Part shown: in pieces, positions 56,825-63,403 of the stretch
How positions within the stretch are numbered: position 1 is the first letter of the stretch
How the letters are laid out: the number at the start of each line of letters is the position of its first letter
NCBI RefSeq assembly: GCF_009931435.1
Contig: NZ_CP043414.1
Direction: 5' to 3' (one strand)
Length of the DNA: 64,000 nucleotides
DNA from: Escherichia coli
GTDB taxonomy: Bacteria; Pseudomonadota; Gammaproteobacteria; Enterobacterales; Enterobacteriaceae
The notes under the pieces: generated by a model
Databases searched by the model: none
Seen by the model: only the letters and a program-made list of their open reading frames with translations
Told to the model about the DNA's origin: nothing
Made by a program: the position numbers and the translations under genes

Positions 56825-57112
56825 AGGAAGTTTGATAGCGATATCCTCCTGATTTTCAGGCTTTGTACCTGTTCAAGACTTACAACTACAAGCCGCTACG
56901 TGTTAACGCCTCCCAAAATAACCACCGTTAACCGTAGCGGTCATAGATACTATTATTTTAGCCACATTACTGGTGATAATGATAATTGATATTATGGCCG
57001 TATAGAAAATAAGCATTAATTATCAGAAAGTTTATTATGTAAACGCGTCCTAATGATTACGTTATTCCTCTTACCGATATTCGCCCAGAGCAACCATCAA
57101 TTACACATATCA

Positions 57113-59288: not shown

Positions 59289-60431
59289 ATGATAAATAAA
59301 CACCCATCATTGTTTTCTCCTTTTATGCTGACAGAAAAAATAAAGCTACGTAATCGTATCGTTATGGCCCCTATGACGACCTGGTCAGCTAATCCTGATG
59401 GAACCATCTCTGAGCAAGAACTCGAATTTTATAAACGTCGCTCACAAAATGTTGGTTTAGTAATAACAGGATGCACCTATGTCACGCCAAGCGGCATTGG
59501 GTTTACTCATGAATTTGCCGCATATGACGACCGTTTCATTAACAGCCTTGAAAAGTTAGCTGCTGCAGCCAAAAGTGGCGGTGCTCCGGCTATTTTGCAG
59601 ATTTTCCACGCCGGTAATAAAGCCATCCCGGAGCTTGTGCCAAATTACGATGTTATTAGTGCCAGCGCATCAAGCGTAAAATCTGGTGACTTTATGAAGA
59701 GAGTGGTACAAAGCAGGGAAATGACTGAAAACGAAATTCAGGAAACCATTAGAGCATTCGGAGATGTCACAAAAAGGGCGATTAAAGCAGGTTTTGATGG
59801 CGTTGAACTTCATGGTGCGCACGGATTCCTTCTGCAGAATTTCTTCTCCCCTCTATTTAACCAGCGTAATGACCGATGGGGAGGAGATCTTGAAGGACGT
59901 ATGCGCTTCCCGCTGGCCGTATTACAGGAAGTAAAAAATGTAGTCTATGAATATGCGAAAAAGCCCTTTGCCATCGGTTACAGAATATCTCCTGAAGAAT
60001 CTGTAACAGGGGGGCTGCGGATAGAGGATACTTATAAACTCCTTGATCGGCTCATTTCATCCGGTATTTCGTATATACATACCTCGCTGGTCAGTATTAA
60101 CGATAGCTACCCTGTTGAGTCGCCAAATGGCCCCCGAACTATTGAATTGATTTTAAATCATATTGCAGGCAGAGTGCCGGTAATCGCCGCAGGTAAAATA
60201 CGCACACCTTCTCAGGCTCAAGAAGCAATTTCCGCTGGCCTGCCACTTGTTGCGATCGGTAAAGGGCTGGTGATAAATCCAGAATGGGTGACTTTAGCTG
60301 AATCAGGTAGAAGTCATGAAATTCAAACAGCCCTTAATCCACAACGCGTTCCTGAATTAACCATTCCGGATAAACTATGGGATCAAATTCAGGCATCGAA
60401 AGGAACTGGCTGGTTTCCGTTAATGGATTAA
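59289..60431 (+). CDS. NADH:flavin oxidoreductase (Old Yellow Enzyme family)
   Basis: 380 aa with OYE-type motifs (RIVMAPMTT, GFDGVELHGAHGFLLQNFFSP). Confidence 0.8.
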   Translation: MINKHPSLFSPFMLTEKIKLRNRIVMAPMTTWSANPDGTISEQELEFYKRRSQNVGLVITGCTYVTPSGIGFTHEFAAYDDRFINSLEKLAAAAKSGGAPAILQIFHAGNKAIPELVPNYDVISASASSVKSGDFMKRVVQSREMTENEIQETIRAFGDVTKRAIKAGFDGVELHGAHGFLLQNFFSPLFNQRNDRWGGDLEGRMRFPLAVLQEVKNVVYEYAKKPFAIGYRISPEESVTGGLRIEDTYKLLDRLISSGISYIHTSLVSINDSYPVESPNGPRTIELILNHIAGRVPVIAAGKIRTPSQAQEAISAGLPLVAIGKGLVINPEWVTLAESGRSHEIQTALNPQRVPELTIPDKLWDQIQASKGTGWFPLMD

Positions 60432-60903
60432 ATATCTATTACTCTCCCGAGAGTAAAACTATCAAACCAATGAGTAACCGATACAGCCTCGCAAATTCTT
60501 TCAGATAATTAACCCGTCACTGCGGCACGTTCTCTCATAAGGCGTGCCTGCTGTGTAATCCAGTATGTATCCGGCATACTTGACGGTTTAATAGAACTCA
60601 ATTCCTTTCCCAGGTAACCAACAACGATATCTTGTATAACACCCCAGGAGATACGACATTATGATGAGATGAGGTATGCTCCTCAGCGCCAATCAACGCC
60701 AGGGCTGGGCCAGTTTTGAGATCAGACTCATTCCCGGACTGACTTCAGGCGACATATATCAATGACGTTGGGGCAATAAAAGATAGCCGATGTAATACAT
60801 CTATTCAAATTTGTGATACATGTCAAAAAATTGGTTGACCAAACTCGTTATTTATATAAGGGCACTTACGAAGTGCACTCTTTTTTAAAGCGAGGAAGTA
60901 CCA

Positions 60904-61005
60904 ATGAAAGAGAATAAAGTACAGCAAATCAGTCATAAACTGATTAATATCGTTGTTTTTGTCGCAATTGTAGAATACGCCTATTTATTTCTCCATTTCT
61001 ATTAA
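60904..61005 (+). CDS. ykgR: Small hydrophobic protein, 33 aa (YkgR-like)
   Basis: ATG preceded by GAGGAAG; MKENKVQQISHKLINIVVFVAIVEYAYLFLHFY has one predicted TM segment. Symbol is from recall of the K-12 small-protein set. Confidence 0.4.
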   Translation: MKENKVQQISHKLINIVVFVAIVEYAYLFLHFY

Positions 61006-61337
61006 TAACGGCAATAAACTGTTCACTTCAGTGATATTTAAAATATGCATCCTCTCCCTTTTTTTTAAGTGATTATTATATCCGTGGGAGAGGAATACAC
61101 GCTATCAGGTAATCAATCAAACTGCGATAAATCATCGGCCAGTAAAGTGGAGATAGCCTCCATTCTCGAAAAATTCATACTCTCAGCGAAACCATCATCA
61201 ATCACTCATCCAGGCGTTTATGGGAGCGTCGCCAATGGCTGCTAACAATGCCAGACTTCCCCGTTGCCGAAATTCCACATACCACAAATGGTCACAGGGA
61301 TTGGGTGTTGAAATGATCCGGATGAGCATGTATCTTT

Positions 61338-61360
61338 ACGGTTATGTTATAACATAACAG
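61338..61360 (+). promoter_or_regulatory. Zur box upstream of rpmE2
   Basis: Palindrome GTTATGTTATAACATAAC immediately upstream of the rpmE2 ribosome-binding site. Confidence 0.6.
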
Positions 61361-61369
61361 GTAAAAATG

Positions 61370-61633
61370 ATGAAACCCAATATCCATCCTGAGTATCGTA
61401 CTGTGGTGTTCCACGACACCAGCGTTGATGAGTACTTTAAAATCGGCTCGACTATCAAAACAGACCGTGAGATTGAGCTGGATGGCGTAACGTATCCGTA
61501 CGTAACAATTGATGTCTCTTCGAAATCGCACCCGTTCTATACAGGGAAGCTGAGAACAGTGGCATCAGAAGGAAATGTTGCACGGTTCACCCAACGTTTT
61601 GGTCGTTTTGTTAGCACGAAAAAGGGGGCGTGA
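61370..61633 (+). CDS. rpmE2: Ribosomal protein L31 paralogue, type B (zinc-independent; YkgM)
   Basis: 87 aa [18 protein letters not shown]... lacking the CxxC zinc ribbon. Confidence 0.9.
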
Positions 61634-61773
61634 TGAAAGTCCTTAACTCTCTGCGTACCGCAAAAGAACGCCATCCAGACTGTCAGATTGTGAAGCGAAA
61701 AGGACGGCTGTATGTGATTTGTAAATCTAATCCACGTTTTAAGGCCGTTCAGGGGCGTAAGAAAAAGCGTTGA
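61633..61773 (+). CDS. rpmJ2: Ribosomal protein L36 paralogue (YkgO)
   Basis: 46-aa [49 protein letters not shown]; its ATG overlaps the rpmE2 stop (TGATG). Absent from the supplied ORF track because it is under 60 aa. Confidence 0.85.
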
Positions 61774-62791
61774 TTCATAATTCGCCGGATTAACGATATT
61801 TGTCTGATTAATAATCAGACCGGATTAATGTTGGTGTATTGATTACACCAACATTAATTTTCCTGGAAATATATTCTTTAAGTTCATTTAAAGCCAACTG
61901 CCTGACGTTTCTCTCCGAATATTCCATTATATTAATGTTGATTTGTTGACCAACTTCGCCCCTGTATGCTGGTATCAACTCTCTTTTAGACTGAACAAGC
62001 CACTCCGCCCCCTCCCTTTGCGGAGCAGCCTGCATTTACACTCAAACTGTTAAGATGATAAATGTGGTAAATCTGTTGGTACTAACATAAAAACGTTTAC
62101 GCCACAGGAACAGCCTGATCCACCGGTAACCCCATCGCCGACGTTCGAGTGCCAGTTAGAGTAACGCGCACAGATGACTGCACGCAGTGCCCTGTCAAAG
62201 AGGCCATCGTTCCTGTGACAGCTGGCAGCCTTCGTTTAACTTCACTTAATTTGGCTCTTGGGGGGGCTTACCGAACAGATGACGTAGTCACACCTATTCA
62301 ATTTTTCACCACTTATTGGAGTAAACACCCATAACCATTTTGTGCGGCATGTTAATCCATTAAAACACCTTATTTATTGTCAAATCTTCTTTAATGATGG
62401 TCAATAATAGTTTTATGTTCTATTTATTATCATTAAAACTTGTTTTTTTACTAGTCGAGCACAAAACGCATTAAGACTATTCCTAACACCTCAGGGCAAA
62501 GTTCCTGGCTAATATAAAATGCAAGTAAGAATTGAACGTTATATTGCCAATAACCTTATGAAACTGAATGTCTTTTTCTTCTTATCAAAAAAGCAATATT
62601 TTCATTTTTAGTAAATATTGACTTAACCATGGAATTCCTTTTCTGTTCACATATTGACACTCATCAGGAAAAAAACATAAATTTAAGCCCAATCGAAAAT
62701 AATTAAAACTTAATCTCGTTTAACCTATATTGATATGTGCTACGTATCTTATTTACTTCCGATTTACTAACAACACTGAATGTACTTGTAA

Positions 62792-63403
<612 letters not shown>

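Follow-up and report, generated by a model that had tools for sequence, protein, structure and literature searches.

The segment 61338-61773 of the window, as we term the whole 64-kb stretch of E. coli DNA analysed here, corresponds to the ykgM-ykgO operon, which carries zinc-independent copies of the L31 and L36 genes under the control of Zur. We give this reading a probability of about 96%, its promoter, terminator and translational coupling being predicted features. The locus is the ykgMO system of K-12 itself, in another E. coli strain. The operon, its Zur operator and its derepression are already known and ordinary; published work covers all three together with the structure of Zur on the related znuABC operator, a ribosome carrying both paralogues and promoter biosensors. 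The locus is of little importance as a discovery and its practical value lies in annotation quality.

The first gene, ykgM (rpmE2; plus strand, 61370..61633), encodes a type B, cysteine-free L31 of 87 aa. Its ATG is at 61370, with another in-frame ATG at 61367, and its TGA stop occupies 61631-61633. The second, ykgO (rpmJ2; plus strand, 61633..61773), encodes a type B L36 of 46 aa between an ATG at 61633-61635 and a stop at 61771-61773. YkgM scores 87.1 bits against the Pfam profile PF01197 (Ribosomal_L31) and 122.9 bits against the NCBIfam 'type B L31' model NF002462 (cut-off 86), and does not reach the thresholds that NCBIfam sets for its canonical L31 equivalog models, NF000612 and NF001809. 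YkgO scores 68.6 bits against PF00444 (Ribosomal_L36, Pfam) and 91 bits against the NCBIfam 'type B L36' model NF002021 (cut-off 70). Each protein is 100% identical to its K-12 counterpart. Both are also present in the solved ribosome of PDB entry 6i7v, where chain D7 ('L31 type B') is YkgM with 100% identity over residues 1-68 and chain C5 ('L36 2') is YkgO with 100% identity over residues 1-45; these identities cover every deposited residue of the two chains. Scores above the type B cut-offs and complete identity to K-12 thus bear out the original prediction of a ribosomal paralogue pair, rpmE2 and rpmJ2. Mass spectrometry has shown that both B paralogues enter ribosomes (summarised by Lilleorg et al. 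2020, PMC7363858).

The zinc sites are lost to different degrees in the two proteins. YkgM has no cysteine among its 87 residues, and alignment to K-12 RpmE places T, V, S and S at the positions of C16, C18, C37 and C40. In the alignment of YkgO to K-12 RpmJ, H14 takes the place of C11 and F36 that of H33, so that two of four ligands for zinc are gone; C14 and C27 persist as C17 and C30, and a histidine occupies a third ligand position. L31B is thus cleanly cysteine-free whereas the C-C-C-H site of L36B is disrupted but not erased. The description 'zinc-free' is therefore less clear-cut for L36B, with two cysteines and one histidine at ligand positions, than for L31B, and some residual metal binding by L36B through H14, C17 and C30 would be compatible with its sequence.

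At the DNA level the window and K-12 share about 98% identity over 700 bp. The operator, the junction between the genes and both proteins are identical to those of K-12 ykgM-ykgO (b0296-b4506, PL31p), and the operon likewise has ykgR, ykgL and ecpR as neighbours. The few differences are synonymous or intergenic SNPs, for instance at 61339, the base adjoining the 20-bp operator, which is C in the window and T in K-12. Megablast against 5,426 complete E. coli genomes recovers the ykgR-ykgM-ykgO-ykgL-ecpR neighbourhood in 5,087. A 45-bp query that takes in the -10 hexamer together with the operator and start codon finds matches in 4,891 of them; 1,302 of the matching records are identical to the query and nearly all others carry one or two mismatches. 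A second 45-bp query, covering the junction, matched 2,311 genomes by megablast. We ascribe this lower count to nearby SNPs in conjunction with the 28-nt exact word that megablast needs, and it carries no weight in our interpretation. In about 340-535 of the 5,426 genomes, megablast detects no counterpart of the locus or of the operator. A few matches lie on plasmid records, among them a 233-kb record of K-12 DHB4 which is probably an F-prime carrying this chromosomal segment.

The original prediction drew attention to ykgO because it was missing from the supplied track of open reading frames. This absence is plausible since, at 46 aa, YkgO is shorter than the usual ORF cut-off of 60 aa. Its K-12 tag, b4506, sits between b0295 and b0296, numerically out of sequence, which we read as consistent with a later addition to the K-12 annotation. 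The annotation lesson is that a 46-codon gene for a real, expressed ribosomal protein is lost from length-thresholded ORF tracks.

A Zur operator lies directly upstream of ykgM, as originally predicted. Its core is a perfect 18-bp palindrome, GTTATGTTATAACATAAC, at 61341-61358, with a central TATA at 61348-61351; it ends 11 nt upstream of the ykgM ATG and starts 3 nt inside the position 61338 given in that prediction. The complete two-dimer site is the 20-bp sequence GGTTATGTTATAACATAACA (61340..61359, without strand), identical to the K-12 operator. The palindrome is the sole match to GTTATGTTATAACATAAC with up to three mismatches in the 64-kb window (0.02 expected from shuffled sequences). 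It fits exactly the skeleton RNNNYRNNRYNNYRNNNY, two overlapping RNNNYxxxRNNNY elements derived from structure (PMC4219657), and nothing else in the 170 bp before ykgM fits this skeleton.

A scan with a Zur position weight matrix had been proposed as a check, and the palindrome passes it. The matrix was palindromised, applied with leave-one-out and built only from the K-12 operators of znuC (znuA-znuC), zinT and pliG, which were located in their upstream regions with the skeleton RNNNYRNNRYNNYRNNNY (Gilston et al. 2014, PMC4219657). Positions 61340-61359 score 24.46 bits, against 25.4-27.9 bits for the training sites. The next unrelated position of the window reaches 12.48 bits, which leaves the operator ahead by 12 bits. 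In 200 simulated 64-kb sequences the maximum score averages 12.5 bits (SD 2.1, highest 19.5) and none of the 200 reaches that of the operator.

All four K-12-type operators align in a single 20-bp register around the central TATA, and those of znuA/znuC, zinT and pliG share the RNNNYRNNRYNNYRNNNY skeleton with the ykgM site. Among the four E. coli operators only the latter is a perfect palindrome. It differs from the others by a G instead of a T at position 1 and by a right flank AAC instead of TTC or TAC. The IUPAC Zur box TGWNAYRWTATAWYRTNWCA matches it at 19 of 20 positions, the exception being this G at position 1, which is likewise found in K-12; with up to two mismatches, TGWNAYRWTATAWYRTNWCA picks out the operator alone in the whole window. 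The older 23-bp proteobacterial consensus GAAATGTTATANTATAACATTTC gives no match to it with up to three mismatches because the flanks of the operator differ from that consensus. This miss does not exclude the site from the Zur boxes. A consensus is a summary rather than a definition, and the same sequence in K-12, a proven high-affinity operator, is equally missed, so that the result is uninformative. The locus is therefore well suited as a positive control when scanning with Zur matrices: it escapes the older 23-bp consensus but is readily picked up by a matrix or by a structure-based pattern.

All operators of the Fur family share an AT-rich inverted-repeat design and a similar length, a textbook property which would also allow the palindrome to be read as a Fur box or as the site of another Fur-family regulator. 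We consider this extremely improbable. Even when optimally aligned, the palindrome departs from the Fur consensus GATAATGATAATCATTATC at 9 of 19 positions, and five other positions in the window fit this consensus much better, with 4-5 mismatches. Moreover, the central TATA has been described as a Zur-specific feature, and for the identical sequence there are measurements of direct Zur binding and of repression that depends on zur (PMC4219657). The best match to the Fur consensus in the window is GATAATGATAATTGATATT at 56975-56993, with 4 mismatches in 19.

The published measurements on the K-12 sequence rank this site among the two tightest measured Zur-DNA interactions. Zur protects about 30 bp of the L31p operator, and its apparent Kd of 0.025e-18 M^2 is the lowest of the four, making it the tightest binder together with zinT (PMC4219657). 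RT-PCR comparison of the wild type with a zur deletion gave approximately 560-fold repression of L31p (PMC4219657). In RNA-seq of E. coli Nissle under zinc chelation by calprotectin, ykgM rises about 2,500-fold and ykgO about 1,000-fold (PMC10410751), and a second study reports induction of more than 1,000-fold under zinc chelation (PMC12279244). The derepression expected in a zur mutant or under zinc limitation has thus already been published for the identical K-12 sequence (about 560-fold and more than 1,000-fold, respectively), and this part of the original prediction stands unrefuted.

The candidate promoter is composed of a -35-like hexamer, TTGAAA (plus strand, 61308..61313), and a -10-like hexamer, TATCTT (plus strand, 61331..61336), which ends 4 bp before the operator. 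Together they match the consensus at 9 of 12 positions with a 17-nt spacer, in a window where such matches are not enriched over shuffled sequences. A similar -35/-10 layout is found directly upstream of the box at the E. albertii, Photorhabdus and Pseudoalteromonas loci. From the position of TATCTT, the transcription start would be expected inside the operator. No mapped ykgMO start was found in the literature searched. A start near 61360 would point to the extended -10 TGTTATAAC inside the operator. A weak Shine-Dalgarno-like AGGT (plus strand, 61359..61362), ending 7 nt before the ATG, may serve ykgM.

The perfect repeat could in principle form a 7-bp RNA hairpin 11 nt before the start codon, and the palindrome might accordingly act in the 5' UTR, on translation or stability, rather than as a DNA operator. 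Such a role is very improbable: regulation of the operon is transcriptional and Zur-dependent (PMC4219657), no Rfam family matches the palindrome, and transcription from the predicted promoter would start within it, so that the full hairpin would not be transcribed. The hairpin itself is weak (-4.4 kcal/mol) and leaves both the Shine-Dalgarno sequence and the ATG free.

As a DNA operator, the site suggests a simple mode of control. One promoter would produce a bicistronic mRNA for L31B and L36B. When zinc is sufficient, two zinc-loaded Zur dimers bind cooperatively to 61340-61359. Since the operator sets in 4 bp beyond the -10-like hexamer and includes the expected start, Zur with its footprint of about 30 bp would extend over the -10 edge and the start site, probably occluding RNA polymerase and keeping the operon off. 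A drop in free zinc releases Zur from the DNA and raises transcription by two to three orders of magnitude. Ribosomes then take up L31B and L36B in place of L31 and L36, so that new ones need less zinc, and L31B additionally represses expression of rpmE.

The label 'zinc-sparing', applied to the pair in the original prediction, is incomplete. L31B and L36B predominate over the zinc forms in stationary phase even with zinc present (PMC7363858), and L31p represses L31 expression via the rpmE 5' UTR (Rasmussen et al. 2022, PMC9825181). As the paralogue switch also takes place in stationary phase with zinc, zinc sparing is not its sole role.

A reporter study noted that use of the whole ykgR-ykgM intergenic region, instead of a short promoter, cuts background by 68% (PMC10410751). 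No second site was found with the Zur matrix in this intergenic region (61006-61335).

To place the operon in a wider context, L31 loci were collected from species-representative genomes by scanning with a degenerate DNA pattern that encodes the L31 motif D-[VI]-x-x-x-x-H-P-F-Y-T-G. The serine codons of this pattern also match a cysteine codon, so that both forms of the protein are recovered, which provides an internal control. The sample contains 120 loci, 35 encoding a cysteine-free and 85 a four-cysteine L31. Within the 150 bp upstream, an E. coli-type Zur box scoring 15 bits or more is observed at 8 of the 35 cysteine-free loci as opposed to none of the 85 four-cysteine loci (Fisher p = 3e-5). 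At least seven of these eight are from gamma-proteobacteria (the window, E. albertii, Photorhabdus, two Pseudoalteromonas, Acinetobacter and Salinicola), the eighth being locus L103. Likewise, a co-oriented L36 gene immediately downstream accompanies 6 of the 35 cysteine-free genes and none of the 85 four-cysteine genes (p = 4e-4). The E. albertii operator differs from that of the window at position 1 only (A instead of G). The E. albertii L31B (L083, 5581-5847), 88 aa long, differs at its C-terminus and contains a single cysteine (R76C with respect to E. coli).

In B. subtilis the ytiA gene, which encodes a type B L31, is monocistronic. It follows the same logic as ykgMO, as do the mycobacterial operons: under zinc shortage, a Zur-repressed paralogue lacking cysteines replaces a zinc-ribbon ribosomal protein (PMC7363858). 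The Zur-box consensus and the gene sets of these systems differ from those of E. coli, the mycobacterial alternative operon encoding bL28, bL33, uS14 and bS18 (PMC7363858). With the E. coli-type Zur matrix, no actinobacterial or firmicute locus of the 120-locus sample scores.

The two genes of the operon meet in the sequence TGATG (plus strand, 61631..61635), in which the last base of the ykgM stop is also the first of the ykgO ATG. That ykgO begins at the ykgM stop, as originally predicted, is confirmed by the sequence, and the one-base overlap is also annotated by RefSeq in strain RMDEC465 and in K-12 MG1655. A GTG at 61630 offers an alternative in-frame ykgO start. A Shine-Dalgarno sequence, AGGGGG (plus strand, 61623..61628), lies in the last codons of ykgM, where it would be expected to serve ykgO; it ends 4 nt before the ykgO ATG and is kept in K-12 and E. 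albertii. The locus thus has the geometry of a coupled pair, with TGATG at 61631-61635 and AGGGGG inside the upstream reading frame. With one base common to the ykgM stop and the ykgO ATG, and with AGGGGG in the last ykgM codons, ribosomes finishing ykgM would probably reinitiate on ykgO. The overlap together with the internal Shine-Dalgarno sequence is therefore compatible with the predicted translational coupling.

A less likely, though still plausible, interpretation is that ykgO is co-transcribed but translated independently from its own Shine-Dalgarno sequence, TGATG reflecting no more than compact packing. AGGGGG at 4 nt from the ATG would suffice for this, and the junction is not conserved between species: next to the TGATG of the window there are the 4-nt overlap ATGA, seen in E. 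albertii and at the cysteine-free locus L111, a gap of 2 nt in Pseudoalteromonas and a spacer of 19 nt in Photorhabdus. Furthermore, no coupling experiment on ykgM-ykgO was found in the literature searched, where the nearest observation is that a ykgO deletion might affect ykgM expression (PMC9825181). However, stop/start overlaps of one or four bases are the classical, textbook arrangement for termination-reinitiation, the overlap is kept in E. coli with a different one in E. albertii, and 5 of the 6 adjacent L31-L36 pairs lie within 2 nt of each other. These observations argue for translational coupling as the preferred reading.

Downstream of ykgO, two adjacent hairpins (61802-61820 and 61822-61860) are followed by UUUU and form a candidate non-canonical ykgMO terminator (plus strand, 61802..61860). 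Their predicted stability is -32.2 kcal/mol (z = -4.7) and none of 200 shuffled sequences is as stable. A consensus terminator scan identified no canonical terminator after ykgO. An Rfam scan of 60400-62900 returned only a chance-level mir-15 match on the post-ykgO hairpin (E = 0.62; 18 bits, with a gathering threshold of 57.3).

The hairpins, the only strong ones downstream of ykgO, lie over the stop codon and within approximately the last 17 codons of ykgL (minus strand, 61808..62035), a gene convergent with ykgO with 34 nt between the two stop codons. YkgL matches no Pfam or NCBIfam profile, and no Zur-like site is found upstream of its gene with the Zur matrix. Nevertheless, ykgL, ykgM and ykgO are the three genes most induced by calprotectin (PMC12279244). 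It is conceivable, if rather unlikely, that derepressed ykgMO transcription runs antisense into ykgL, causing either interference or, through antisense or read-through signal, an artefactual 'ykgL induction' in RNA-seq; the induction may then correspond to the ykgMO 3' UTR or to read-through counted on the wrong strand. If so, ykgL would be linked to zinc while lacking its own Zur box.

Upstream of ykgR, the window carries an intact gene for a 380-aa NADH-dependent flavin oxidoreductase (59289-60431), likewise found in strain RMDEC465, whereas K-12 has the ykgP and eaeH pseudogenes and an IS3 at this position. No more than three E. coli records reach 99% identity to a 1.4-kb query, so that the window derives from a less commonly sequenced lineage. 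On the other side of the operon, the longest reading frame of ecpR/matA (62813-63403) encodes 196 aa from a GTG, as in the K-12 annotation (591 nt); RefSeq annotates the gene at 543 nt in RMDEC465, a discrepancy in the choice of start codon.
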